A DNA stretch of 63,119 nt. Source: a plasmid. This document shows positions 7,860 through 62,762 of this stretch, piece by piece. Position numbers and translations under genes: made by a program. Every line of letters begins with the position of its first letter. Positions within the stretch are counted from its first letter, which is position 1. Location of the stretch: assembly GCF_056746865.1 (NCBI RefSeq), contig NZ_JBWKMP010000006.1. One strand, written 5' to 3'. The notes beneath the pieces were generated by a model. That model was not told the origin of the DNA, ran no database searches, and worked only from the letters and a program-made list of their open reading frames with translations.

Positions 7860-8030
7860 CCTGGCAGGGCTGCGCCCTGCCTCTGCCGTCTGCATAAGAC
7901 TATGATGCACAAAAATAACAGGCTATAATGGCCAAAATCGGGGCAGGATGTGGGAATGTCGGACCGCGCACGCTCGCTCAGACATTCCCCACCTGGTCAG
8001 GGCTGCGCCCCGACACCCCGTAAGGAGCTG
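7860..8030. other. oriT: oriT region (origin of transfer), candidate nic site
   Basis: Directly upstream of nikA; inverted repeat GGCAGGGCTGCGCCCTGCC (7863-7881); 9-bp inverted repeat GGGAATGTC...GACATTCCC (7952-7989); IncP-like ATCCTG motif on the - strand at 7944-7949; second GGTCAGGGCTGCGCCCCGAC copy at 7995-8014. Confidence 0.55.
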
Positions 8031-8032
8031 AA

Positions 8033-8366
8033 GTGAGTGATAGTGCGGAAAAGAAAGAAAAGTGAGGTACGGCAAAAGACAGTTGTCAGGACACTCAGAT
8101 TCTCGGAGGATGAGGATGAAATCATAAGGAAAAAAGCTGAAGATTCCGGACTTACTGTATCTGCTTACATCCGAAATGCAGCACTGAATAAGCGAATTAA
8201 CTCCCGTACAGATGATGCTTTTCTGAAGGAGTTAATGAGACTGGGAAGGATGCAGAAGCATCTGTTTGTTCAGGGAAAAAGAACCGGTGACAAGGAATAC
8301 GCAGAAGTGCTTGTTGCCATAACCGAACTTACAAATACATTGCGTAAACAGTTAATGGAAGGTTGA
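8033..8366 (+). CDS. nikA: NikA relaxosome accessory protein (ribbon-helix-helix); start ambiguous
   Basis: Product ...KKSEVRQKTVVRTLRFSEDEDEIIRKKAEDSGLTVSAYIRNAALNKR... matches NikA as recalled; best Shine-Dalgarno (AAGGAG) serves GTG 8033, but that frame stops after 10 codons and the long frame starts at GTG 8037, implying a 1-nt indel in the GAAAAGAAAGAAAAG run. Confidence 0.8.
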
Positions 8367-8376
8367 GGATTCTCCT

Positions 8377-11078
8377 GTGAATGCAGTCATTCCGAAAAAG
8401 AGAAGGGACGGCAAGTCTTCGTTCGAAGACCTGGTATCCTACGTCTCTGTCCGGGATGACATGACCGATGAGGAACTGAATTTATCTTCTTCTTCGCAGG
8501 CTGAACAACCGCACCGAAGCCGTTTCAGTCGCCTTGTTGATTATGCGACACGCCTTCGAAATGAGTCATTCGTGGCGCTGGTTGATGTCATGAAGGACGG
8601 CTGCGAATGGGTCAACTTTTATGGTGTCACCTGTTTTCATAACTGTACTTCTCTTGAAACTGCTGCTGCAGATATGGAGTACATTGCGGACGGCAGGCAC
8701 ACTATGCAAAAGATGATACTGACCCTGTTTTTCACTACATTCTTTCCTGGCAGTCACATGAAAGCCCGCGTCCGGAACAGATTTATGACAGTGTACGTCA
8801 TACGCTGAAATCACTCGGCCTTGCCGACCATCAGTATGTCTCTGCCGTGCATACTGATACAGATAATCTGCACGTCCATGTGGCTGTTAACCGGGTACAC
8901 CCTGAAACGGGTTATCTGAACCGGTTATCATGGAGTCAGGAAAAACTCAGTCGTGCCTGCCGTGAGCTTGAACTGAAGCATGGTTTTGCTCCGGATAACG
9001 GTTGCTGGGTCCATGCGCCGGGAAATCGTATCGTTCGCAAAACTGCCGTTGAACGTGATCGCCAGAACGCTTGGACACGCGGAAAAAAACAAACTTTTCG
9101 CGAGTATGTTGCGCAGACAGCGGTCGCTGGTTTACGCAGTGAACCTGTACATGACTGGTTATCCCTGCATCGTCGTCTTGCGGAAGATGGTCTGTACCTG
9201 TCTCAGATGGACGGAAAATTTCTGGTGATGGATGGCTGGGATCGCAACAGGGAAGGTGTACAGCTTGACTCGTTTGGTCCCTCCTGGTGTGCAGAAAAAC
9301 TCATGAAAAAAATGGGTGACTACACGCCAGTGCCAAAAGACATTTTCAGCCAGGTGGAAGCACCAGGACGCTATAATCCGGACTTCATTGCAGCTGATGT
9401 TCGCCCGGAAAAAATCGCTGAAACAGAAAGTCTGCAGCAGTATGCCTGTCGTCATCTTGGAGAACGTCTGCCGGAAATGGCACGGGAAGGACGGCTGGAA
9501 AACTGCCAGGCTATTCACCGCACACTGGCTGAAGCGGGATTATGGATGCGTGTTCAGCATGGTCACCTGGTTATCTGTGACGGTTATGATCATAACCAGA
9601 CTCCCGTTCGTGCTGACAGCGTATGGTCACTGCTGACGCTCGACAATGTGAATCAACTCGATGGTGGCTGGCAGCCTGTACCAACAGATATTTTCCGCCA
9701 GGTTACGCCAACAGAACGCTTCCGTGGTCGTCGTATGGAGAGCTGTCCTGCGACCGATAAAGAATGGCACCGTATGCGTACAGGTACGGGGCCGCAGGGG
9801 GCTATCAAACGCGAACTGTTTTCTGACAAAGAAAGTCTGTGGGGATACAGCATCAGCCATTGTAGCCCTCAGATTGAAGAAATGATCACACAGGGTGAGT
9901 TTACCTGGCAGCGTTGTCATGAGTTGTTTGCACAACAGGGACTGATGCTACAGAAACAACATCACGGGCTTGTTGTCGTTGATGCCTTTAATCATGAGCA
10001 AACGCCGGTGAAGGCCAGCAGCATTCATCCTGATCTGACACTGGGGCGTGCGGAGCCACAGGCCGGACCTTTTGTGAGTGCTCCAGCAGATTTGTTTGAC
10101 AGGGTGCAACCTGAAAATCGCTATAACCCGGAGCTGGCTGTCAGTGACAGGTACGGGGTCAGCAGTAAACGTGACCCAATGCTGCGCCGGCAGCGACGTG
10201 AAGCCAGGGCTGAGGCCCGTGCTGACCTGCGTGCCCGCTATCTGGCATGGCGTGAACAATGGCGTAAACCGGATCTGCGTTATGGGGAACGTTGTCGGGA
10301 AATTCATCAGGCATGCCGTCTGCGGAAGTCACACATTCGTGCGCAGTACGATGATCCGGCATTACGTAAGCTGCATTATCACATTGCAGAAGTTCAGCGA
10401 ATGCAGGCATTGATCAGGCTGAAAGAAGACATCAGGGATGAGCGACAGAAACTTATTGCTGACGGGAAGTGGTATCCACCCTCTTACCGTCAGTGGGTCG
10501 AAATTCAGGCTGCTCAGGGAGACAGGGCTGCTGTATCGCAGTTGAGAGGCTGGGATTATCGCGATCGCCGTAAAGACAAGTCACGCACAACGACGACAGA
10601 CCGCTGTGTCGTGCTTTGTGAACCGGGCGGAACGCCGGTATACGGTAATACCGGTGATCTCGAGGCCCGTCTGCAGAAGAACGGGAGTGTTCGTTTCCGT
10701 GACCGTCGGACGGGAGAGTTTGTCTGTACGGATTATGGTGACAGGGTTGTTTTCCGTAATCACCATGACCGCAATGCGCTGGCAGATAAACTGGATTTGA
10801 TTGCACCGGTATTATTCGGGCGTGATCCACGCATGGGGTTTGAACCAGAAGGAAACGACAAACAATTTAACCAGGTCTTTGCTGAAATGGTTGCCTGGCA
10901 TAATGTGACAGGCCGTACCGGTCACGAAGACTACAGGATTACGCGACCGGACGTGGATCATCACCGTGAAGGAAGTGAACGCTACTACCGCGATTATATC
11001 GCGGCGAACAGCAACGATGACGCATCACTGCCTCCGCCGGAGCAGGATAAACGCTGGGAACCGCCTTCTCCAGGTTAA
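8377..11078 (+). pseudogene. nikB: NikB relaxase (MOBP), frameshifted in this sequence around 8698-8708
   Basis: N-terminal 143-aa ORF (8377-8808) and 743-aa ORF (8847-11078) join if one nucleotide is restored; the second frame upstream reads ...DPVFHYILSWQSHESPRPEQIYDSVRHTLKSLGLADHQYVSAVHTDTDNLHVHVAVNRVHPETGY (His-rich relaxase motif); combined ~900 aa. Confidence 0.85.
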
Positions 11079-16646: not shown

Positions 16647-16770
16647 ACTGTTCCGTTACAGAGTGGGTGGCTCTGACCGGAGGTCTATAACTGACGCTAA
16701 AAATGATAATTTGTTCTAACTGATTAATGTTCATGCCATAAGTTTACGGGAAAGGCTGACCACCTGATAT

Positions 16771-16801
16771 TTGCAAAATACGCAAGTCCATCCTGTATAA
16801 T
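16771..16801 (+). promoter_or_regulatory. sigma70-like promoter for the DinQ-like locus
   Basis: TTGCAA (16771-16776), 19-bp spacer, TATAAT (16796-16801) preceded by TG. Confidence 0.45.
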
Positions 16802-17028
16802 CCGCAGGTCAACCAAGCTCTGTAATGGCTAGACACATTCTGTAGCCCGCTGATATCCATCGGGACTATGGACAGCTGTGCTATTCAAAGTCCTGGCCGG
16901 ACAAACAGGTGGTGCTGCGTTTGGTGCTCTGGCCGGAGGAAGTCTCTTTTCAACTAACACTGAAAGTGCCGTTGTGACAGGCAATGTAAGAGTAAACAAC
17001 GGTGATTTCTCCAGTGATGGAGAAGCGG

Positions 17029-17142
17029 ATGATTTCCCTGTTAATCATCGTTCTCAGGGCGGTAGTTGCCGTTGCAAACGCGCTGATTGCTGTTCTGGAA
17101 CTGATCCGGGAACTCGTCTTGCTGATAAGCCTGGAAACGTAA
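17029..17142 (+). CDS. small hydrophobic peptide, candidate type I toxin (DinQ-like)
   Basis: 37-aa ORF MISLLIIVLRAVVAVANALIAVLELIRELVLLISLET with GGAG 6 nt upstream; resembles DinQ as recalled (ALIALLELIRFLL); promoter upstream and hairpin downstream. Confidence 0.45.
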   Translation: MISLLIIVLRAVVAVANALIAVLELIRELVLLISLET

Positions 17143-17143
17143 C

Positions 17144-17176
17144 TAAGGGCAGGGATTTACCGCTAACCTGCCCTTT
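17144..17176 (+). terminator. terminator-like hairpin after the DinQ-like ORF
   Basis: AAGGGCAGG...CCTGCCCTT stem followed by TTTAAC. Confidence 0.4.
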
Positions 17177-17191
17177 AACAAAAAAGAGATC

Positions 17192-17368
17192 TCACGTTAA
17201 AAATTTGTACCCTTCTTTAACTTCCAGTGCCTGCTCCTTTGACTCAAACATCAGTCTTGTTTTCCCGGGAACACCCCATGAAATGTATTCAACATCTATC
17301 CACCATTTTCCATATTCTTCATATGGCCCGGATATTACTTTTTTGACAAAGGCGTCTACCAGATTCAT
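17192..17368 (-). CDS. hypothetical small protein
   Basis: 58-aa ORF MNLVDAFVKKVISGPYEEYGKWWIDVEYISWGVPGKTRLMFESKEQALEVKEGYKFLT from ATG 17368; AGGA-type Shine-Dalgarno. Confidence 0.35.
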   Translation of the reverse strand: MNLVDAFVKKVISGPYEEYGKWWIDVEYISWGVPGKTRLMFESKEQALEVKEGYKFLT

Positions 17369-18040: not shown

Positions 18041-18703
18041 TTAAAATACTTCGGCTACAGGCATGCCTGCAATCTGCTCCCACTCCTTACGCTTCTCCTG
18101 AATCAGGCGAGGAAAGTCGACAGGGTAATCATATCCTCGACTTGCCATAGCGTGCATGGTGTTTGATGCGGTTTCTGGATGAGTACACCATGATGGAATA
18201 GGAACCATTGGCAGGTTGATGTATTTCGTATGAATTTCCAGTGTTTTGTCGTCTGTTACAGTACGAGTGAAATTATGAATGTCAAAACCGATAACATCCA
18301 TAATGTTGCCTGGATAGATACGGACATACAACATTGTGCCATTTTTAAGGTCAATACCGAAATAAGCTCCCTGAGTTAAAGATAATCCTTCATACCCCTT
18401 CTCTGGAGAGTAGAAGCCTGACTCTTTTATTGTTTGTACAACTTTTCTTATCTTTTCTCTCCTTGTTTTTGCACGTGAATACATCCATATACCTGGCGCA
18501 AGTAATAAGAACCAACTACCAAAAGTGACAACATAATCTTCAATGTTGTCACCATAATAACGAGAACTAAATAACATCAGTGTAGATGTCAGTGCGCAAA
18601 ATAAAAAGAAAGGTATTCCTAAAAAGAAGTAAGCCTTCCTTAATACATAATATAACAACCACCAAGTTGGAAATCTGTCAGTTGTCTCTTTTTTATCTTT
18701 CAT
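18041..18703 (-). CDS. excA: ExcA entry (surface) exclusion protein
   Basis: 220-aa membrane protein immediately downstream of traY; size and position match R64 ExcA as recalled. Confidence 0.8.
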
Positions 18704-18831
18704 ATAATGCCTCCCCTCGTACTATCTATTATTTTAATGCCGATGGGGAGGTTGTGCAATAGTGTTTTATTATATTATCCTTTTATTCCGTCCTTGTCGT
18801 CACTTCCTATTATCTTTAACACGATCTGTTT

Positions 18832-21008
18832 TCATTCCGAAGGAGTATGTCGGATATTGCGACTTCCTCCAATAAATATTTCTTTAACAGAATTTGCCAT
18901 GCTGCCAAGAGTGTTGGCTCCATCACGTCCCCCAAGGAAATTAATAACATGATCAGGTAGGTAGGCCTGAAGGGCAAATATGGCAGCTACAGAGGTTGTA
19001 CAAATTCTGGCGTATATCAGCAAGAAACCAGCAAGACTGAAAATACCGGTCAGCGAATTGAACTGTACGTTAACCAGGGCAGCGCCAAATAATGCATTCA
19101 GTATTGTGCCTACGGCGATGATGGCGACAGAAGCAAAGAAAAAACCAAAGACCATGAGGGCGGCCTTATCATACTATCAATTAAGTATATATAACCGTAG
19201 GCTGCCCGACTTCCTCTGTCTTCTGATGTTCCGAGATGTGTTGCAGCCCACAGAGGCCCGGCGGTACATCCTATTAATACGCTGACTATCCAGTTCCCGA
19301 TGCCTGTCATCCAGAAAATAAACGGAATAAATGGCAGGTAAATTGATAAGGAAAATCCAGCACAGAACATCAGGAACAGCAAGAAATAAACAGGTGGTGC
19401 AAGTGCTTCAAACAGCGCGGTAAGCATCGAAGCGGCACCTGTTAGTGAGTTAAAGAATTTTACAAGAATTGAGTTTTGCCACTGGCAACGACAACTCTGA
19501 CCGTTGTATATAGTCCAGATTCCTTCTGCACTTACCATTGTTATATCTCCGATATTTTTCATTTTTATCAGATGGATTAATTTGATCGCTGGTTGTTCCT
19601 GTGCCACTTGTTTCTGTTGCAATCCTGTTAGTGAGACTAACAAGGGGGCCCATAATTTCAGACAAGGCAGATTTAGGATCTTGTGCATTTGCCATTCGTT
19701 GTTCAGTTGGATGATAGTACTGTGCCCAGCGGTGGCGTATAGGAGGAATTCTGCAGTTGCGTCCTGGTAGGCACTCATGACCGCACTGAATAAGTCAGTA
19801 TCACCAACTTCTCCCAGTGATGACATTGAAGTTACAGCTGGAGCTCTGTCAGCCAGCTCTGCCAGACGCTGGTTAGCAGTGGCAAAGGTCTGATACCATG
19901 CGCCAAGCGTTACCCACCCGTAGGTTGTGAGATAAGATTTAAGAGCCTCTTTTCTGGATTGCTCTCCGTTATCAGTGGGTAGCGATTTTTGCACAGCACG
20001 TTCATATTCGTCGGCTGCTTTCTGAATCCGTGTCTCGATATCCGGCAATGTTCCGTTGCCAGAATTTCTTTTTTCCAGAAATGTTGTCACAAACTCACTG
20101 GCAGCGTTGTCCATGTCGCTAATCATATTATCCATGGCTGCACGTTGTGCTGAGATAACACCGCTGTATTCGTTTTTACTGAAGGGATTAAAGAATTTTC
20201 CAATCGTCGATTGATCTGTTGTTCCGTTTCCTTCTACTGACAGGCTGGCTGAACCACAGATACCGCTGCCATTGGATACCGTGACAGTGTAATTACCACT
20301 GGCGGTTTTAGCTGATTCTGTCATCAGTGAAGTCGAGGATTTGGCCGTCTGATTAAAATCATTTAGTCCTGCGTTAACCGCATACTTACACAGTTCCATT
20401 TCAAAAATGCCACGCGCTGCTGTTCGTGTGGATGCCTGAACTGGCTGTACAGTCATTGAATAACCATTTGCGATATTATCAGCGGCAAGTTGCACCATCA
20501 CATTGGCGGACCCAACCCCCATTATCGATGCGCCCCATAACATAATGAGCTGAGCGATACTCCAGCCATTTCCGGTTGGAACGATCATCAGAAAACCTGC
20601 AACGACACTCAGTGTGCCGACGATATCGCGTCCGGTGCTGAATACCTGTCCCTGATGCCCCGAACGCACAACATGACGGATACCAATGAACATAAACCAG
20701 ACAACGGCAAGTACGGCGATGATACTGTTGAACGCCCCGAACATGCTTCCGATCAGAGTGGGGGCGCTGGTTGACAGTGGATTGGTGACTACATCACCGA
20801 ATATCGTGACCAGCGCCTGGCGAGACAGATCGTCAGGATTGGTTGCGGCAGACACAATATCCTGATAGGTCACTGAAGCCATTGCCGGCAGTGAGGATAT
20901 AGCAAGGCCTGCACAGAGTGCGCGAAGTAAAATTTTCACAGTAACTCCGGAATAGAATTGCGTATGGGCAAAGGCCACACAGGATTTAATTAAGGGGGAT
21001 GGCGACAT
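18832..21008 (-). pseudogene. traY: TraY (DotA-like polytopic membrane protein), frameshifted near the A6 run at 19139-19144
   Basis: 632-aa ORF (19110-21008) and 107-aa ORF (18832-19155) overlap in different frames; adding one T/A in the homopolymer joins them (...IRPPSWSLVFFFASVAIIAVG...). Confidence 0.8.
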
Positions 21009-32627: not shown

Positions 32628-35600
32628 TCATCGGCCGGGGCTGTGGGAGAGATCCTGATGCAGAGTTTTTTCCTGCCTGTCCTCCGGCTTTTGGCTGTTG
32701 GACCACTGCTGCCATGACTGCTCGAAGCCCAGGTTCCGGTACAACGCATCAGGTTGTTTTTCCGGCGTGTAGACAGCAGCAAAAAGCGGTTCTTCCCGGG
32801 TTTTCAGATGAAACTGCATAAGCTCCGGTGCGGGGCGATTCGTGCTGTCAGCATCGTGGTTTACCGCTTCACCATAACCTGCAAAGCGTAAACCTTTGTC
32901 GGTCAGCGCATTGATAACCAGCTGACTGTTGTCGGCTGATGGGGTGGCCAGTGCCGGATACAATGTGCCGTTCAGCCGGACCACACCCTGCAGATGTTCA
33001 TCGGCACTCTGGACAAGTAGCAGGTTGAGTTCACGCGTATCCTTATCCACTGATCCCAGAACAGGTGTCAGCTTGTCAGGGGCTGCGCTGGTTATTTCTG
33101 TTACCTGATTTGCGTTCTGTGGCGCGGAGACCGGATGTCGGTCTTCACCGATAAACAGATGTGAGCCGACGTTTTCTGGCATACGTAACGCTTTCATCTC
33201 TTCGGGCCACCCCTGGCTGATTTGCGCAGCCACTTTCATAAAGGTTTCGACCGGAATCGCCTGAATACGCTGACCTTTATCCGGATTATCATGTGATACC
33301 GAGATCCCGTTGGTAACTGACTCCATGGACCACTTATTCCGGAAACGTGCTTTTTGCTCTCCCGGGAGGATGAATTGTTCGCGGTTCTGAAGTGTCAGTG
33401 TCACCACGTCACCTTTCTGATGGTTTTTGACCAGACTTTCCAGTTGTTCCCCCCAGTAGAGTTTGCTGCCACTGCGGTTTTTAAGCTCAACAAAGAAACT
33501 CTCTCCTTTGCCGGGTGCATATTCAGCACGACCAAAATTGTGCAGTACGGCAGTCACGCTCTCTCCCGGGCGAAGTTTTCCTGGTGGTTCTTCACCTTGT
33601 GCCGCATCTGCCGTTTTGCCAGGTTCAGCCGGTGATGATGCAGGGACGGTGCTGACGGTTGATGCTTCAGGGGCAACTGGGGACGCCGGGGATTGTGTGG
33701 CTTCTTTTTCCTGAACGGGGTCAGGGACAGCCGGTTGTTCAGGGGTATTCCGGTTAAGTTCCGGTGTTGGCTGATGGGTGACAACAGCATCCTTACCGAC
33801 AGCCATTTCCTTGCGTAATTTTTCGAGCTCCAGACGCTGATCAGGCAATTTCATGCGCACATTGATGTTGTGCTCGATAATCAACTGCATCGCTTTTTGC
33901 TTAAAGGCATCACTGCCCGTCAGCTCAATGACGCCACCATAAAAATTAGTGGCCACAGCAAGTGCGGCCAGAACACTGCGATCGTCATTGCTGGCACCGT
34001 TGACCATTTCCAGCCGGTTTACCCGGTCAATGAAGGCAGGTTTGCCATCCAGTTTGTACAGGACGGTTCTGTCTGCTCGTTTTTCCCCTTCAGTGATTTA
34101 ATGATTTCGTCCAGATTGAGCGATATCGGTGCATCAGGACGTTCCGGGGCGTAGACAATACTGTCAGGTGTCGGTGTGGTCGTCGTGGTTTCCGGTGAGG
34201 GCGTGGGATCACTGTTCTCATGTGCCTGTGAATCCGTTTTTTTACGCGTAAAAAAGCCACGCGCTTTGTCGAGAAACGATGAAGTATTATCAGAAGGTGA
34301 TGTGCTCTGAACAGGTTGCTGTGGATTGGGTTCATCCCGGACAGCCGGTTCTGCAGTATCTGTTGTGGCCTGAAGTTCTGACTCATCTGCCTGAACGTGG
34401 TCTGTGTCCGGTTGCGACGGCATATCACTGTTTTCCTGCAGATGCTCAGGATTTTCATTGTTCATCAGCTCCTGATATGCGCTGTAGTTTTCGTATTCTT
34501 CGGGGCCATCTGACTCAGGAAGGAACGGCTCTGGCTGAAGGGGAATGTCTTCAGTTACATGGCTGACCGCCTCTTCCCGGGGAGTATCCGGGGATATTCC
34601 GGTGCTTTGTTTGTCATCAGGCTCCGTCATCACGGTCATTTCCTCTTTGACTGCATCAGGGGAAGGTGATGGCTCGGCTGATTCATTCATGGTTTCAGAT
34701 GAGGGACTGTCTTCAGGGGATGCGGGGGCGGCAGCAGGGGCCGGTATTTCAGGTGAAGTGCCGGATTCCTGTTGTGACTCGTTTTTTTCCGGTTGTGACA
34801 GTTCGGCTTCAAATTCACGCCAGTCTTTATCTGTGGCCACCGAGACAACTTTTTCCGGAGGTTCCGCCGGATGAGCGGGTTCATCAGGGGCAGATGCCGT
34901 TGTACTTTCCGGGGACGCCGGTGATTCTGCAGGGGAGTCCTGAACTACAGAGCTTTCCGTTTGCGCCTGAACGTTATCAGCGTGCCGCTCATCTTTGCCG
35001 TTATTTTCAGTGGCGTGACTGGTAAATGACTGTGTTTCATCAGCAATGTTACTGCTGGAAGCAGCTGGTTGTTCCTGCTGCGTGGCGGACGGCAGAGAAG
35101 GTCCCTGGTCATGGCTGTGCCCTGTATCGGGTGATGTTTCAGGATATTCTGTCGGAGTCATGGTTTTTTCCTCAGTGTGGACCGGTGTAAAAACGAGGTT
35201 GCCGATCACCAGTGCCTCGCGGATTTCCGGGGTGTTACTGTTGGGGGTGGAAACCCCGATGTGTTCTAACTGGGCGTTGATGACATGCTGAAAAGCGGCC
35301 CGTCCCCGGCTTGCGTCCAGGTCATTGAAATCGGTCAGCCCCTGCGCTTTTTCGGCATCGGTGAACGCAGGAAAGATGACCGTTCCTCCTGTCAGTTCTG
35401 CGGCTTTTGTTGCACTGACGATACCTTTGTTAACCCGGATTGCATGATCGTTGTCGGCACAGAAGATAAAGGGGCTTTGCGTCCACTTTTGCCGGGCATT
35501 TTCGGCAACGGCAATCATGTTGCCTCCATCCACCGTCATCAGTACCGGAAGGCCCGTGGCTTCGTGCAGGGAGGCCGCAGTGGCATAGCCCTCGGCAAAC

Positions 35601-36394
35601 AGTACCGGCTGACCGTTGCGCGGTGTGCCCAGCGCAAACCAGTTACCGGTTTTCTCTGAATCTTTCAGGATGCGGGCATCCTTCCCCCCGGTGACCGGAA
35701 TACGCTGGTAAGAGCGTATCGCGCCGTTACGGTTACTGAAGGGAATAACCAGTTCATTTTTGTTGTTTACCCGCACCCCCGGTGCAGCCTGAATGCCTTT
35801 CCGGGTCAGGTATTCATGTGCTGTGGCCTGCGGCCATTTGTTGACATAGCGGCGGGCATACGCGGCCTGTCGGTTGTACTGTGCTTTCAGTTCCCGCTCC
35901 GCGTCCTCCCTGCGTTGCATTGAATGCGCTTTCAGGTGGAGTCTTGCGCGGGGATCTGTCTGTTCTCCGCCGGAGAAGGTCCAGGTGATCGGCGAATCAT
36001 CCGCGCTGCGATAATCCCTGTACCAGCCGGCAGGTCTGCCGTCCAGGAATCCGCGATATGCGCCACTTTTTTGTCCTTTTTTGTCATCGGCGGTCGGGAC
36101 ACGGTGGATTTTCCCGTCCATGACCGGCAGTTCTTTCAGAACCAGTCCGGCATTCTCCAGAACCTGGGCAAACTCGGTGACCGGATCACTGCCGTTCATG
36201 GAGACGTCCTGTGGCCGGGGCAGCCAGCGGTCCAGCCTGGACAGGTCCGCCCCCGGGCGGGCGAACCAGAGTTTGTGCTCCTTGTCCCAGATGACGGGCG
36301 TGTGCCCGTTCATCGGGGGATGTGCTTTTTTGAGATCTTCTATTTCATCTGCAGGCACGGCAAGCCAGGTGCGGTAGCGGGATACAGACGGCAT
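32628..36394 (-). pseudogene. sogL: Sog DNA primase (SogL/SogS), frameshifted between 34022 and 34098
   Basis: N-terminal primase part (ORF ending 34019, start ATG 36394 with AGGAGA) and 459-aa C-terminal ORF (32628-34007) are in different frames; a G4A5 run at 34081-34089 is the likely indel site; Asp/Glu/Pro-rich linker is typical of Sog. Confidence 0.85.
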
Positions 36395-36483
36395 GAGTGC
36401 TTCTCCTGAAAAAAGACGGAAAAAAACCACCGCCGGAAGCCGGGGGTGGCTGGGGGGATAGAAAATCGGGGGAGAAATGTTTG

Positions 36484-44274: not shown

Positions 44275-44741
44275 CGGTGGTCTGGAGGCAATAAAGTGAA
44301 CTACTCCGCCTGTAAGTGGTATCAATCATCTGTAGCAATGAATCACTTCATTGGCGGGAAAAGTGGAGGATCTATCTACTACAAACCCATTCAATGCCCG
44401 ACCGGATTTATCATGACAGGTACACGCATGTATGGCATTGGTGATGGCGTTGATGAGGAACACGTTGATGCTTATTGTTGCCCCTTCGGTTAAATCCCAG
44501 CACCAGGAAGATTCAGGCATGTAACAGTAATTGTGCCGCCGGACTCATAATTTCCCCACGCATAATTATTCACATACCAAACCTTGTTTTGGTCGGAGTA
44601 TACCTGCTGAAACCCACCAAAAGGTGCACCATTAAGGTATGTCCACGAACAGTACGCATGTACGCCAATGCTCAGATTTCGGGTGTTTTTCCCGATATTG
44701 TACGTACTGGTAGTGAAGTTCACTTTTGCCGTTGTCCAGAT

Positions 44742-44754
44742 ACCGGATTGGCAC
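44742..44754 (-). repeat. shufflon repeat r2 (core)
   Basis: ACCGGATTGGCAC on + strand. Confidence 0.8.
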
Positions 44755-45132
44755 GGAGGCCAGCAGCGCCAGCAATTTAATCTCAGTTCTGACACGCGAC
44801 GACATAACTACATTTTCCGGTTAAATCAGCTCTAAATGTCCCTTTATGGAAATTGTATTCGTCATAGAAGCCGCATTTCACAATTCGATTGGCATCATAG
44901 GTTGCAACTGACCCCGCAAAATAATTCGGCTTCCACCCGTGCGGATTTTCTGCATTACTGACACTCCATGAGTCAGGCATGTCAATAGGAACGACTTCTG
45001 TTTCTGCCATTTCACGCCCGTCAATACGATAGGTGTTAATACACAGTTTAAACCTCCCTAAGACCTGTGTGTTTTTGGGATATAACGTAAATGTTTTTAT
45101 ATTGTGTCCATATCGACGCTGATTACGCCAGG

Positions 45133-45145
45133 TACCGGATTGGCA
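45133..45145 (-). repeat. shufflon repeat r3 (core)
   Basis: ACCGGATTGGCAC on + strand. Confidence 0.8.
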
Positions 45146-45153
45146 CGTAGGCC

Positions 45154-45166
45154 AGTGCCAATCCGG
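45154..45166 (+). repeat. shufflon repeat r4 (core)
   Basis: GTGCCAATCCGGT, 8 bp from r3 in opposite orientation. Confidence 0.8.
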
Positions 45167-45621
45167 TACGTGGGGGACAAGACTTGGCAAGCCGTTACTC
45201 ACAGTATTCGTCCTACTTTCTGACAGATTACTTGCTTGAAATAGCTTATTGCCAGAATGGTTCACATAGAGGATGCATTCACTACTGCCGGTAGTTGAGA
45301 GCCCAGCAGGGGGCAGTACATTGTTTATTTATGCATCTGGTAAGGTCAATTAAGGATCTGCCGGAGGTGCAAATACCGCCGCCAATACATCCCGTTTTGC
45401 AGTTGGATATGTTGCTCCAGGAAAGCGCCAAGTAGCCTGCAATGTACAGCAAAGCTGATAAAGGCTGTTTTTCCTGCATATGGAAAAACAGCCTTTATCA
45501 GCTTTCCACCACTGTACCTGGGGCAGGTACTTCCTATCAGATGGGCAAACATCCTATCCAACAGAAAATACATCATGTGGTGCCGGGGTTGTTTGCGTCG
45601 TATTTGGATATCAAATTAAGT

Positions 45622-46926
45622 TTAATTGAGAGTTACACAGGACGCAATACAACCTGTCTTGTGCTCGTATTTGTACCATTTTCGTGAACCAGATGGACTC
45701 TCGACTACCTGGCAGTAATGAGAATCCTCAGCATTTCCCATTCTGGCAATGGCACAAAAGTCAAATTGCCCCAAGTAACCAGTGCTGGAAAGTTGAGTAA
45801 CCTTGAGCTTTCCACCTAATGCCCTCCACACACCGGATTGGCACGAAAGTATCGCCCCTGTACTGTCGCGGCCTACAAGCCCGTTAGGGGAGCAGGAAGT
45901 GCCAGCAACGGCAGTTCTTTCCAGTTGTAAGTATTCACCAGTATAAAGGCGACCATCAGCACGAACAGTACCGCCTTTCACCTGACCGCCGGTATAGATG
46001 CCCTTGTTGTTTACACTTCGAACCCATGATCCATCGGACATATAAAATCCGCCACCGTGAGTTTCATTGAGCCAGCCTTTACTGTTACGAGTAATTAACC
46101 AACCATTATTACTTCTGATATCACCGCCAGCGGTGACATTTACGTCAAAGTTTCCGCTATTGCCTTTTACCTGACCGCTGAAAGTGCCATTTACACCATT
46201 CACATTGCCGCTGAAATTACCAGTCTGGGCATTTACTGCCCCAACGTTATTCAGGTTATTTGATCCCATATCAATGGCCGTGTGCATTTTGTTTAAGTCA
46301 GGGCGACCATTGACCTGGAATCTGTAAAGACGATCAGTGTCCTCAGCTGCACCACTAAGTTCATCTGTCGATAACAATACGGCAATATGCCCGTTACCGC
46401 TTTTGGCACCATAATTACTTAAAGCTACTGACCAGGAACGTAATGCACCTGTGGCTGTTTTGCCGTCCTGGATATATCCACCAAGACCAGTGGTAATATC
46501 CTTAGCCATCTGGATAAGTGCTTTCACTGGATAAGGTGTGCCACCACTGGATACAACCATTGCCTGTAGTAATTCCGGGTTTTGGGCGTTTCGAACCACA
46601 TATGCCTGTAACCGCTGCCCCTCGCTGTTTGTCTCAGTAAACCCGCTGGACAAAAAGCCGGTATTTTTCAGCATGGTTGTCGTGATAACGGCAGGAGTTG
46701 TTGTGGTACTACTGCCCTGGAGAGTTGTGTAGTTTTTCCCTATATAAGAGCGGGCCGCACTGGTCCAGTTGCTGACAAGACGTGCTTCAGTTTGCCATCC
46801 TTTTGTTTGAATATAGTCCTGCCATATGCCTGCTCCCCAGGCAACTATGATCATAACAATCAGTAAAGCCGCGCCAGTTTCCAGCGATGCCCAGCCTCGG
46901 TCATATTTTTTCATCAGATTACCCAT
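45622..46926 (-). CDS. pilV: PilV thin-pilus tip adhesin (constant region plus the currently joined shufflon C-terminus)
   Basis: 434-aa ORF with prepilin-like N-terminus; crosses repeat r5 into the shufflon. Confidence 0.85.
45832..45844 (-). repeat. shufflon repeat r5 (core), junction with the pilV constant region
   Basis: ACCGGATTGGCAC on + strand, inside the pilV ORF at ...[14 protein letters not shown]. Confidence 0.8.
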
Positions 46927-47597
46927 AGTGGTTGATAAAGATTATCCAGCAGCAAAAGGACATGGCCAAAACATAGCCATGGACCCAGAGGGCCTTCTTT
47001 ATGCCCTTTTATGCACCATGTTGAATGCCATAAGACAAATCCTCCTGTGCCCAGCAACACACACCATATGGCGTTATATAGCCCTGACCATGCGGTAATA
47101 CCTGCAATAAGCCACAGGTCTCCTGTGCCAATATTAAGACGATGGCGGTTAACCAGTTTATGCAGACAGAATAAGACAATTGCGGCAGAGACAATTTCTG
47201 TTGCACGGAGCCACCATATATCAGTCGTGATTTGTGATAGCATTCCTGCAATTAAAAAACGTCGGGTGAATGTTCCTGGTAATAAACCTGTCAGTGCATC
47301 CGTTACCGCCATTTGCAGTATGAACGAAAGAATAAGGACAGCATGAATACGGTAGAGCAGTGGTGATGATGATAAAATAATTAACGCCACAGCTATACTG
47401 TATAGCCATATTCCTGACAGAACAGCAGGGTGTGTCTTATACCAGAGATGTCCCGTATCAGATAAAAAATAACGAACTCTGAATAGCAGAGTTCGTCCAA
47501 TAATGGAAAATGTGAACATCAATGGCAGTATATAAACAGGGGATAGACTTATGCCTACGATTGTCTGCATTGCCTGCCTCCCTGTCCGGGAAGACAT
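46914..47597 (-). CDS. pilU: PilU prepilin peptidase
   Basis: 227-aa polytopic membrane protein with peptidase-A24-like motifs. Confidence 0.8.
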
Positions 47598-49866: not shown

Positions 49867-51421
49867 TTAGGCATCATCGATGCTGAGGCGTTCGTCTTCG
49901 TCCAGAGGGATGATTCTGTCGGCTTCAAGAGGGTCCACCAGGCCTTCATTGATACGGCGAAGAAGATGCTCTACACGACTGATGCCATGCATGTTTTCAA
50001 GCCAGTATTTACGTGCTGCAACTTTGCCGCGTGTTTTCAGAATCTGAAATAAGCGATTATCAGGTTCTATCACTTCAGCAATTACGGTCCTGCCGGTGAG
50101 GCCTTTACCTATTTCACCGCGCTTTCTGCCGTTAATAATTACGTCGTGATTACAGTCGGAGCATCCGTGAGGATTTCGGAACCAGATATTATCTGTACTG
50201 CAGAGTGAATCTTTATTGCAGTGCCGCTCAAGGTAAGCGCGGTCGTCTTCGCTAAGTTCAGGTACTCGCTTTTCCCATGGAATACGGCAGGAGGGACACA
50301 GAGTTGGTACAAGGCGCTGGCTGATCATCCCAATCAGTAATTGCGCATCGCAAATAAGATCGGCATTCATACCCATCGTAATCATTCGCTCCGGTATACC
50401 CAGAGCTGAGTTTGTATGTAATGTCGTCAGAACGATGTGACCGGTCTGAGCCGCGTAGGTGGTTGACATCATCGAGACAAGATCGCGCATTTCCCCTTCC
50501 ATGATGGCATCGGGGTCAAGTCGCATTGCCGATGAAATAGCACGACTCCATGCCAGTTTGACGGCCTCTTCGTCGGATTTGTCACAGATAATCGGGGTTT
50601 GTGTTGCCCCCAGTATCTGTCCTTCCAGCGGATCTTCGATCGTCAGCAGGTGTCGCCCCTGATTATCGTCAAGATATACACGGCAGGCACTGCGTAACGT
50701 TGTTGATTTACCGGAACCTGTTGGACCAGACAGAACTATTTTCCCTTCCGGGCGGCGCAGCATGACGTTCAGCAACCGGATTTGCTCCGGTATAAAGCCC
50801 AGTTGCTTAAACGTGGGAACTTTGTCTCCGTCATCGGGTATCAGGCGCATAACTGCAATCAGACCATCTCCCGTAGGTCTGTGACTGTATCGTGCACCAA
50901 ATATTCCTATTTTTCGCATTAATTGTGGGGACAGGCGCGCATCCTGTTCCCTTTGAGGGAAGAAACTGGTTTCAGTGACATCAGCCATTGACAGAATGGC
51001 TGTTGCGCAAAGTGAATAACCCAGTGCAGGTTGATCTTCATCTACAGTCTGCAGTTCACCGAATATTCTCATGCGAACTTTGAAAATAGACTCTGAAATT
51101 AAAAAATGAATATCTGAAGCACCAAGTTTTCTGGCCGTTTCAAAATAAGAGAGAACTTTCTTCTCACTTTCACTGACATCTGCAAGATCTTTCAGATGAA
51201 TAATCCGTTCTTTCGGACCTTTATTTTTCATCATCCTGACCGGCTTCCTGTAACTCAGACAGCGAGACTACTTTTGGGTTGATGTCAGGGTATAATTTTA
51301 GCAGTTCCTGGAGATTACTCTGTACGTCAGGTCTTGTTCGCTGATTTGTTTCGATGAGAATTTCATGGGTGTCTCCCCGGGATATAAAAAGGAGAGCATC
51401 CTTCAGATTATATTTGTCCAT
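49867..51421 (-). pseudogene. pilQ: PilQ pilus assembly ATPase (GspE-like), frameshifted at the A5 run 51225-51229
   Basis: 66-aa ORF (51221-51421) and 455-aa ORF (49867-51234, Walker A GPTGSGKST) join into ~517 aa if one A is removed. Confidence 0.85.
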
Positions 51422-56686: not shown

Positions 56687-56985
56687 TGACTTCGGGCAAC
56701 GTGTGTCAGCATAGGGGCTAAGATGTATAGTTGATTTCTTGCTTCCCTTTTCTTCTTCACAAAGAATGTGAAGTCGTATTTAGATGCAGACCTTACAATA
56801 AGAAGTACACATCTGAAAAGTAGTGGGAAAATGCAAATCACAACCACCACACAGAAATATAACATATAAGGCAATGATAAGTTGTCAGTGTATGGATAAC
56901 GTAAGTATTGCCATGGGGTAGTGATGTACAGACAAAGCGTACACCAAAGCAACCAGAGATATAATGGTACGTTATTATTTTTCAT
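56683..56985 (-). CDS. hypothetical small membrane protein in an AT-rich island (pilJ position)
   Basis: 100-aa ORF with two or three transmembrane segments; AT-rich. Confidence 0.4.
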   Translation of the reverse strand: MKNNNVPLYLWLLWCTLCLYITTPWQYLRYPYTDNLSLPYMLYFCVVVVICIFPLLFRCVLLIVRSASKYDFTFFVKKKREARNQLYILAPMLTHVARSQ

Positions 56986-62095: not shown

Positions 62096-62762
62096 TAAAT
62101 CCGCAAACAAAGAACTTTAAAAAGCTGCAAACCTGAAACAGCAAACCTGCAATATAGTCCTAACCCCATTATTTAATCCCCTGCGTTGCTTCGCCGCAGG
62201 GAAAGTCTTTATCTCTGAAACCACTGTGAACAAATTAAGAGGCCTTCGCTTGCAGCGGCCAAGGCCTCGCCGCTCAGAATCAAGAAGCCTCCACGCTAAC
62301 GCGCGGGCCCCGAACCTGATTTCAGCGCAAACCTCAATGCAACCACCCACACAAACACGACGCCGCTGACCCCTCATAACTGAAAAGCAGAGAAGCCGCC
62401 CGCCCGAAGAGGACGGCGTCAGCTTGACGCTTGATATTTAATCTCCTGCCATCATTCATCTCTCAATAATGTAAAGATCACATCATCACCGACCATAACC
62501 GTTAACGCAGAGATCGCCCGACTTAATCCCATATAGCGACCACTCAACCACACCGCACAGAAGCTATTTCATGGCTGAAAGCGGGTATGGCTTCCAGACT
62601 GGCGGCGATCGTTAGCGCTAATATGATCGGTAAAGCGTACCATTTAAGCGGTTTGTTGCTGTGTAACAACGGGGTCCGGCACCTTATCCTGACGCGCATT
62701 ATTTGCCTTGTTTCGTCTGAAAGTAATCACTATGATTAAATATGATTAACAGCTAATCGGAT

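Follow-up and report, generated by a model that had tools for sequence, protein, structure and literature searches.

Probable sequence errors in nikA and nikB, beside an IncK/Z-type oriT repeat, in the relaxosome module of an IncI1-type plasmid

How should a plasmid record be read in which the gene for the relaxase NikB is split in two and the start codon of the neighbouring nikA is out of frame with the body of the gene? The window, meaning here the whole stretch of 63,119 nt that was analysed, is an IncI1-type plasmid stretch with R64-like backbone and gene order, and the locus in question is, judged from its sequence, the oriT-nikA-nikB relaxosome module. It has in common with R64 (IncI1, NC_005014.1) the order DUF4942, mobC-like gene, oriT, nikA, nikB and opposite-strand trbC. 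The 63-kb transfer region is syntenic throughout at 97–99% identity, and all R64 genes from psiB to traB were detected with the exception of pilJ and traD. No IS elements, deletions or nonsense mutations were found in the window in this comparison. The features on which the argument turns are the following.

7944–7951, minus strand: oriT nick-region core, CAGGATGT on the plus strand and ACATCCTG on the transferred (minus) strand
7952–7989, arms 7952–7969 and 7972–7989: oriT inverted repeat, presumed NikA-binding, with outer halves GGGAATGTC / GACATTCCC; IncK2/Z-type allele
8022–8027, plus strand: Shine-Dalgarno sequence AAGGAG of nikA, read from the sequence
8033–8065, plus strand: canonical nikA start frame, a 10-codon ORF reading MSDSAEKKEK and then stop
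8037–8366, plus strand: long NikA frame of 109 aa with GTG start at 8037, in register from residue 6 onward with R64 NikA from residue 7 onward
8049–8050, plus strand: nikA lesion, T→AA, net +1 (T in 20 relatives), the extra base lying at the 5' edge of the GAAAAGAAAGAAAAG run
8105–8126, plus strand: K/Z-like patch in nikA, K/Z-type at 5 of 5 informative sites and with I1-type flanks
8377–8808, plus strand: nikB N-terminal fragment of 143 aa, residues 1–104 authentic and including Tyr22, the last 39 out of frame
8688–8689, plus strand: nikB lesion, GG insertion after Ala104 within the nuclease domain, context ATTGC^ACGGCAGG
8690–11078, plus strand: nikB C-terminal reading frame, with homology to NikB residues 105–899 from 8690

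Relative to R64 the window carries +1 in nikA and +2 in nikB. In the relatives nikA starts at the GTG equivalent to 8033 and reads MSDSAVRKKSEVRQ..., and all three natural NikA alleles that were compared begin with MSD in frame with the body of the protein, whereas the GTG-AGT-GAT start of the window is out of frame. An indel in the A/G run had been proposed by the first-pass annotation, and the alignment with R64, pBCE049-2 and 21 further relatives bears this out, the reference GGTAAG appearing as GGAAAAG in the window. Both nikA frames had been read correctly as well, the one stopping at 8065 and the other opening four nucleotides after GTG 8033 to give 109 aa. The best ribosome-binding site had been assigned to GTG 8033, and the Shine-Dalgarno sequence does lie 5 nt from this codon, but it also lies 9 nt from GTG 8037, and with these spacings AAGGAG can serve both. 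The +1 is offset by a private –1 at 8028, where one spacer base that is present in all relatives is gone between the Shine-Dalgarno sequence and the start codon, so that the distance to the NikA body is unchanged. The long frame retains every residue from Arg7 of R64 NikA on, and its score with the NCBIfam MobA equivalog NF041264 is 121.5 bits (cut-off 80 bits; MobA/NikA ribbon-helix-helix family, Pfam PF21983), with profile positions 1–91 matching residues 12–102. Placement of the gene is as in the family, with the oriT repeat upstream and the nikB start at 8377 downstream. To call the start of nikA disrupted was therefore too strong given the frame intact from Arg7, its profile score and the distance of its start from the Shine-Dalgarno sequence, and GTG 8037 could still serve for the synthesis of NikA if the sequence is correct.

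In nikB the frame switch and the split of the relaxase into pieces of 143 aa (ORF 8377–8808) and 743 aa (ORF 8847–11078) were both rightly noticed, but the cause is a 2-nt insertion and not a single-nucleotide indel, and it lies 10–20 nt upstream of the interval 8698–8708 that had been proposed for the switch. NikB of the relatives is 892–899 aa long, mostly 899 (n = 20), and is encoded by one ORF in 23 of 23. The Pfam domain Relaxase (PF03432) covers residues 85–203 of R64 NikB, and the break in the window falls after residue 104. The first start available to the C-terminal piece is GTG 8847, equivalent to Val157 and located just before the HTDTDNLHVHV motif. As a result Tyr22, which by analogy with RP4 TraI we take to be the catalytic residue, is on the N fragment, H158–H167 belong to the C fragment, and neither fragment has residues 105–156. 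With TraI_MobP_relax (NCBIfam NF041893; family cut-off 250 bits) the C fragment reaches 306 bits, but over profile positions 173–496 only, and the N fragment 19.8 bits; by tblastn, residues 102–899 of R64 NikB are 99.2% identical to the C-terminal frame. The sequence is clearly that of nikB, and its product as written would not be a whole relaxase. If the sequence is correct, NikB would be null, with Tyr22 and the His motif separated and residues 105–156 lost, and oriT could then not be nicked.

The core of the nick region is identical in R64, in 22 other I1-type loci and in the IncK/Z plasmids pECOED and pEGY2, and presumably, from homology to R64 and RP4, the nick falls immediately 3' of ...CCTG. 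Adjoining the core are private changes at 7933 (–2), 7938 and 7943, which exact DNA scans did not find elsewhere in the genome and metagenome contig collections; in comparison with R64 the private changes comprise 7933–7943 and 8005. Next to it stands the inverted repeat, which reads GGGAATGTC... in the window and GCAATTGTA... in R64. Its arms of 18 nt are 83% complementary, its position matches that of the 17-bp repeat of R64, and its hairpin folds at –15.5 kcal/mol (z –3.1). All 12 informative sites within 7953–7988 are of the pECOED/pEGY2 type and not of the I1 type, and the repeat region of these two IncK2/Z plasmids (NC_011754.1 and NZ_CP023144.1) is identical to the window over 7945–8004. 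It may be asked if the dense differences in 7933–8126 are noise; we reject this, given the compensatory changes in both arms of the repeat and the match to IncK/Z plasmids. On these grounds the differences in 7953–7988 and 8105–8126 represent true IncK/Z-type polymorphism of natural origin and not damage, and the plasmid is, as far as its sequence tells, one that carries an IncK/Z-type NikA-binding repeat within an IncI1 backbone. This combination was absent from PLSDB. The second patch is visible in the protein, where residues 24–31 of NikA are SEDEDEII in the window, SPVEDETI in R64 and TEDEAEIV in K/Z; in comparison with R64, residues 1–6 and 24–31 differ, and residues 36–110 are identical. 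The K/Z-type repeat, putatively bound by NikA, is paired with an R64-type beta-strand region of that protein (KTVVRTLRF). Across I-complex plasmids the NikA-binding repeat and the first ~35 residues of NikA covary as a module.

Are the two lesions carried by any other plasmid? Neither was found in the 23 relatives, in about 2,200 PLSDB plasmids, in about 1,400 E. coli genomes or in large protein, genome and metagenome collections. PLSDB was queried with the whole locus, with each lesion site and with the oriT patch; of the 1,514 matches that span the nikB site the best was 96.5% identical, and the complete genomes of E. coli came no closer. The products of 109, 143 and 743 aa had no exact match among about 15 billion proteins, a 36-mer spanning the nikA lesion was absent from the genome contig collection, and a 32-mer spanning the nikB lesion was absent from the metagenome contig collection. 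Out-of-frame TraY and NikB peptides had no carrier in the protein collection, where only three unrelated frameshift fragments were retrieved. With neither lesion in the 23 aligned relatives, and with the GG insertion as the sole private difference across the 2.7 kb of nikB, the lesions are by this comparison beyond chance.

They are also not the only ones of their kind. At least 16 small indels are private to this record, and the reading frame is broken in four further transfer genes, all of which are intact in relatives that carry exactly the same TraM, PilP, TraW or PilL proteins.

traY: eight private events
sogL: –1 at 34091
pilQ: +1 at about 51224
pilK: also hit

The private differences were tallied by an offset-based scan, which picks up indels in repeats, and amount to 16 indels against 24 substitutions, compared with 121 gap columns against 2,655 substitutions in the polymorphism of the relatives (odds ratio 14.6, p ~1e-11). 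The excess also persists when the neutral indel fraction is set at 0.1 (p 6e-7), and 13 of 13 private coding indels are frame-breaking. If traY is set aside, 8 indels and 20 substitutions are left. The spread is extremely uneven: eight events fall within 1 kb of traY, and more than 30 kb of other tra, trb and pil genes is free of them. Beyond its own indel pilQ (1.6 kb), like nikB, has no other private change, and the out-of-frame parts of the broken genes are 97–99% identical to intact relatives. In many of the events an indel and a substitution lie side by side (T→AA, C→GGA, T→CC). Runs of four or more are found at the private indels of nikA (A4), pilQ (T5), pilK and one intergenic site only, and a homopolymer-type platform error was rejected as the general cause since most private indels are not at such runs. 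The private substitutions show a transition to transversion count of 11:13, compared with 1,625:1,030 in natural variation (p = 0.14), and those in coding sequence divide into 9 synonymous and 8 non-synonymous.

We consider it probable that the nikA and nikB lesions are errors of this sequence record and not properties of the plasmid. Base-calling or assembly faults would have put T→AA and GG into the record, and the real plasmid would encode a NikA of 110 aa and a NikB of 899 aa, as its relatives do. The earlier reader had posed the choice well, as one between inactivated oriT processing and sequencing errors, and the number of private indels tilts it to error. We favour error because the lesions are private despite 23 allele-matched relatives, because four other essential transfer genes carry private frame-breaking indels, because the excess of indels is an error-like mutation spectrum, because the broken genes lack further decay in a window free of IS, deletion and nonsense mutation, and because clustered, complex events fit local low-quality sequence. 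The divergent patch around the lesions weakens this explanation, as it is natural and of K/Z type, so that the record is not simply noisy there; the +1 of nikA is in fact positioned between two such patches. The synonymous split and the transition to transversion comparison do not favour error, and half of the private indels are in traY alone, which is perhaps an unsampled natural allele. It counts against error, too, that nikB pseudogenes occur in nature (PMC11229322) and that at least one independent public NikB fragment (P0001) is broken nearby. A genuine pseudogenisation, with nikB truly broken, self-transfer lost and traY, sogL, pilQ and pilK decaying alongside, is possible though in our judgement unlikely. 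The plasmid's own NikB could then not nick oriT, and transfer would need the relaxase of a co-resident I-complex plasmid. The frames are after all broken in the sequence as given, and damage to several transfer genes is what one expects after selection on conjugation has been lifted, but an indel to substitution ratio about 7 times the neutral expectation, the extreme unevenness of the lesions and the freedom of nikB and pilQ from other private changes are difficult to reconcile with such decay. nikB is among the pseudogene-enriched families of large plasmids that have lost mobility, whereas the usual route in those plasmids, by IS insertions, deletions and nonsense mutations (PMC11229322), is absent here and synteny with R64 is complete. 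The three private changes in an otherwise invariant nick region point to real loss, and with its K/Z-type repeat beside an R64-type NikA beta-strand region the module could already be compromised; yet the plasmid family is very densely sampled and no sister record has any of the lesions.

A sub-case of the real-lesion reading, which we regard as improbable, sees in the nikB frameshift a scar left by imprecise gene conversion on a fine scale between co-resident IncI1 and IncK/Z plasmids, an exchange that would also account for the NikA-binding repeat and for nikA codons 24–31. The mosaic is indeed fine, passing from 12 of 12 K/Z sites in 7953–7988 to 42 I1 sites in 8029–8104 and to 5 K/Z sites in 8105–8126. 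The GG insertion yields GCGGAC at the break, which corresponds to the Ala-Asp codons GCG GAC of pECOED and pEGY2 at the homologous place and is followed by I1-type sequence; it could mark imprecise conversion and to that extent weakens the case for error. The transferred difference is however only 3 nt, other K/Z-specific bases are absent for hundreds of nucleotides on either side of 8688, and coincidence would be no rarity for so short a match (our own estimate lies roughly between 1 in 16 and 1 in 256); conversion would also leave the traY, sogL and pilQ indels unexplained. Much less credible still is a rescue of NikB by the ribosome. A –1 slip at CAA AAG (8707–8712), 20 nt past the insertion, would restore a relaxase of full length in which ADGRHTMQK replaces ARQAHYAK. 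The required direction is –1 (N frame from 8377, C frame from 8847), and an A_AAG slip site does lie within a 150-nt zone that is open in both frames; slippage at A_AAG without a stimulator is inefficient, and the downstream RNA (8713–8790) folds at –10.5 kcal/mol with z = +0.53, 139 of 200 shuffles folding as well. No X_XXY_YYZ heptamer occurs in 8655–8806, where the single-codon sites A_AAG (8710) and T_TTC (8731) are the only candidates. The public NikB fragment P0001 is broken at the same A-run, which shows the run to be indel-prone, but a single-ORF NikB in all 23 relatives gives no hint of an evolved recoding signal. Programmed –1 frameshifting of the dnaX or IS3 type was rejected, as heptamer, structure and two-frame conservation are all lacking.

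The broken nikA and nikB are alone no ground to call the plasmid non-conjugative or merely "mobilizable" before it has been re-sequenced, and the same caution applies to the annotation of traY, sogL, pilQ and pilK in this record. The IncK/Z repeat in an IncI1 backbone bears on the question of which helper plasmids mobilise which oriT. There is a slim chance that the record is accurate and that the plasmid is a natural hybrid, in which conversion swapped the repeat together with part of the NikA N-terminus and an out-of-register scar, GCGGAC, broke nikB. Such a hybrid would have a mismatched relaxosome in need of a helper relaxase or of rare –1 slippage at CAA AAG, and would be a snapshot of the specificity modules of I-complex oriT and NikA re-assorting, and of the cost.

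Among known systems, plasmids that have lost self-transmissibility carry transfer-gene pseudogenes that are common to whole clusters and accompanied by segmental deletions and IS (Nucleic Acids Res 2024, PMC11229322). nikB is named there, and the window likewise has a broken relaxase gene where other members of the family have an intact one; unlike those cluster-wide pseudogenes, its lesions occur in a single record and in a region without deletion or IS. If they are real, which we think unlikely, they would represent an ordinary and well-documented loss of self-transfer by inactivation of the relaxase. pECOED and pEGY2 have a NikA segment, (S/T)EDE.EI, similar to that of the window, but the remainder of their nikA and relaxase DNA is ~70–80% identical to the window, which has I1 alleles there, and both of their genes are intact (110 aa and ~900 aa) in contrast to the split nikB. 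The small mobilisable plasmids pCERC7, NTP16 and pU302S have their own NikA and oriT and use an I-complex relaxase from elsewhere, so that NikA and the repeat form an exchangeable specificity module working with a NikB made elsewhere (PMC9282650). These plasmids lack nikB and have 20-bp repeats, whereas the window has a full conjugative backbone; the covariation of the repeat with the NikA N-terminus among the present alleles agrees with the behaviour of their module.

The 63-kb window covers the leading region and the transfer region of a conjugative plasmid of IncI1 type, in the order psiB, psiA, ardA, oriT-nikA-nikB, trbCBA, pnd, excA, traY to traE, rci and shufflon, pilV to pilI, traCB and replicon. 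It shares synteny with R64 (NC_005014.1), at 97–99% identity, and nearly all R64 proteins have a counterpart in it with 94–100% identity. pilJ and traD of R64 are without counterpart, likewise in the relatives sharing the PilL of the window. Three patches diverge strongly from all relatives fetched, at 16700–17200 (net +48 nt) downstream of pnd, at 45317–45645 (+56 nt) in the shufflon/pilV C-terminal segments and at 62213–62709 (about −60 nt) beyond the replication gene, and they look like ordinary mosaic variation. For the shufflon region 44275–45306, none of the loci fetched gave a collinear match.

The relaxase gene nikB is found in two ORFs, 8377–8808 (143 aa) and 8847–11078 (743 aa). When the window is aligned base by base with R64, pBCE049-2 and another 21 relatives, it is seen that ATTGC(C/A)CGG of the relatives has become ATTGCGGACGG through insertion of GG at 8688–8689. 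The first-pass annotation had described this split into 143 and 743 aa, which is borne out, but it attributed the split to a single-nucleotide indel around 8698–8708, whereas the insertion is +2 and lies 10–20 nt upstream. The break follows Ala104, within the relaxase nuclease domain assigned by Pfam to residues 85–203. The N-terminal fragment retains Tyr22, presumed from RP4 TraI to be the catalytic residue, and the first start in the C-terminal frame is Val157, immediately ahead of H158-T-D-T-D-N-L-H-V-H167; residues 105–156, including HYILSW, are missing from both. As written, nikB is predicted to encode no functional relaxase. A −1 ribosomal shift would be required to rejoin the full gene, and it is very improbable that this occurs: the open overlap (8655–8806) is without an X_XXY_YYZ heptamer, A_AAG (8710) and T_TTC (8731) being its sole slip sites, the downstream RNA is unremarkable (z = +0.53), and none of the relatives has the two-frame arrangement.

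In nikA, the reference GGTAAG is replaced by GGAAAAG in the same alignment (T to AA at 8049–8050, net +1). Translation from GTG 8033 gives (M)SDSAEKKEK and then a stop, and the frame of the NikA body starts at GTG 8037 with a 109-aa product; the 10-codon ORF, the long frame and an indel in this run were all proposed from the sequence beforehand, and apart from the size and position of the nikB insertion the initial observation as a whole is confirmed. A −1 at 8028, private to the window (that is, absent from the relatives aligned), lies between the Shine-Dalgarno sequence AAGGAG (8022–8027) and the start codon and accompanies the +1, so that the distance to the NikA body is unchanged. Whether the lesion is real or an artefact, nikA is probably not inactivated, because GTG 8037 stands 9 nt from the same Shine-Dalgarno sequence, the product retains all of R64 NikA from residue 7 on, its frame scores 121.5 bits against the NCBIfam MobA equivalog (cut-off 80; the profile starts only at residue 12), and the first residues of natural NikA alleles are variable yet basic.

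Compared with R64, four further genes are split across frames by private indels.

Frame-breaking private changes in other transfer genes
traY, 18778–21008, minus strand: eight private small indels between 18808 and 19767
sogL, 32628–36430, minus strand: private −1 at 34091, adjoining private substitution at 34094; 803 + 459 aa
pilQ, 49867–51421, minus strand: +1 T at about 51224 (T5 versus T4 run); split at codon 65
pilK, about 56730–56770, minus strand: private 1-nt deletion at about 56750 versus 8 of 9 relatives; gene split

Relatives sharing the exact TraM, PilP, TraW or PilL have intact SogL (1254–1255 aa), PilQ (517 aa) and TraY (720–722 aa). In pilQ, encoding the thin-pilus ATPase, the extra T is the sole private difference across 1.57 kb. 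sogL, which encodes the primase, also carries a cluster of four private substitutions (33832–33843). The traY indels leave stretches of 66 aa and 11 aa read in the wrong frame, the ORF nonetheless staying open for 632 codons, and the conserved C-terminal 130 residues are detached and run on in another frame; the DNA holding these indels is 97.8% identical to traY of R64. Exact ExcA (220 aa; 18041–18703) and PilU (218 aa; 46917–47570) are absent from an index of 153 billion genes, unlike neighbouring proteins, and ExcA is 94.5% identical to that of R64 with a small compensated-indel patch at 18577–18591. Taken with the odd traY, this ExcA could belong to a novel entry-exclusion pair, or the two could just reflect further errors.

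The best PLSDB match is 96.5% across the nikB site and 89.9% across the oriT-nikA stretch, and complete E. coli genomes hold nothing closer for the lesion sites. Exact scans for these sites in genome and metagenome collections were empty, and the 109-, 143- and 743-aa products had no exact match among about 15 billion proteins. The intact neighbours are frequent in the collection (DUF4942 protein in 16,000 blocks, mobC-like in 54,000); all 20 contigs listed with them have an adjacent 110-aa NikA, and the adjoining NikB is 899 aa in 18 (898 and 892 aa in the others). Frameshifted fragments of NikB and TraY are present independently in public assemblies, though none matches the window. One from the Logan assemblies (P0001; five member sequences) is a 142-aa NikB N-terminal fragment, frameshifted at the CAAAAG run equivalent to 8707–8712, 20 nt downstream of the insertion in the window; indels thus tend to arise at this run, be it in assemblies or in nature.

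Between 7811 and 11078, 24 of the 26 differences shared by no I1-type relative fall within 7933–8126. The oriT inverted repeat, in 7945–8027, reads GGGAATGTC.../...GACATTCCC in the window versus GCAATTGTA.../...TACAATTGC in R64, its arms changed in a compensatory way, and the 18-nt repeat keeps its R64 position. It is identical to that of pECOED (NC_011754.1), which with pEGY2 (NZ_CP023144.1) heads about 500 plasmids matching the repeat alone at 90–95%; the donor lineage is IncK2/Z. Site-by-site comparison with both lineages gives a fine mosaic.

Mosaic and private changes around oriT
7953–7988: K/Z-type stretch, 12 of 12 informative sites
8029–8104: I1-type stretch, 42 sites
8105–8126: K/Z-like stretch, 5 sites; NikA residues 24–31 are SEDEDEII
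Everything downstream of 8126: I1-type
7933 (−2), 7938, 7943: private versus both lineages; nick region, otherwise invariant
8005, 8028 (−1), 8049 (+1), 8688–8689 (+2): private versus both lineages

R64-type sequence makes up the flanks and also the beta-strand region of NikA (KTVVRTLRF), and the mosaic as a whole is absent from PLSDB. The divergence around the lesions is natural; noise as the source of 7933–8126 is rejected in view of the compensatory arms and the K/Z match. The changes in 7933–7943 and at 8005, which are −2, A>T, A>G and T>G, fall within the nick region and shortly past the repeat, where I1-type and K/Z-type plasmids otherwise share one sequence, and the exact 36-mer of the private nick region had no match in genome or metagenome collections. 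Among relatives the oriT repeat alleles covary and NikA residues ~1–35 covary with the repeat, as illustrated by a third natural allele (NCBI/ENA contigs L013, L005 and L007) with repeat GCAATTGTATAACCGCGC/GCGCGATTATACAATTGC and NikA N-terminus MSDKRQRSGSERRQKTILRAVRFSPDEDETICKN; residues 36–110 are invariant. The repeat and NikA recognition residues of the window may be mismatched. This IncK/Z-type NikA-binding repeat and partly K/Z-like NikA N-terminus in an IncI1 backbone, outside the earlier claim, is modestly interesting; the NikA-plus-repeat pair has been treated as a module that can function with an I-complex relaxase supplied from another source (PMC9282650).

Outside the mosaic patches, private differences comprise 16 indels and 24 substitutions, compared with 121 gap columns and 2,655 substitutions in natural polymorphism among relatives (odds ratio 14.6, p about 1e-11); with 0.1 taken as the neutral fraction of indels, p = 6e-7. 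All 13 coding private indels are frame-breaking; the events are clustered, many pair an indel with an adjoining substitution, and most lie away from long homopolymers. This mutation spectrum points to error. No other decay was found in the broken genes, and the region is free of IS elements, deletions and nonsense mutations. The lesions are in this unlike the nikB pseudogenes described in plasmids that lost mobility, which are lineage-wide and associated with deletions and IS elements (PMC11229322). We favour, with some reserve, errors of the sequence record as the most likely explanation of the lesions.

The main rival, a real and recent loss of function in the relaxase gene and other transfer genes, is possible but improbable. 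In its favour, the natural mosaic shows that noise alone does not account for the record at oriT-nikA, and the nikB insertion creates GCGGAC, which are the codons of K/Z plasmids at the homologous position; imprecise conversion could have left such a scar. Of the private substitutions in coding sequence, 9 are synonymous and 8 non-synonymous, the transition:transversion ratio of private substitutions shows no significant departure, and frameshifted fragments do occur independently in public assemblies. traY, which might be an unsampled allele, accounts by itself for half of the private indels; without it, 8 indels stand beside 20 substitutions. If true, genuine inactivation would be an ordinary phenomenon, already described.
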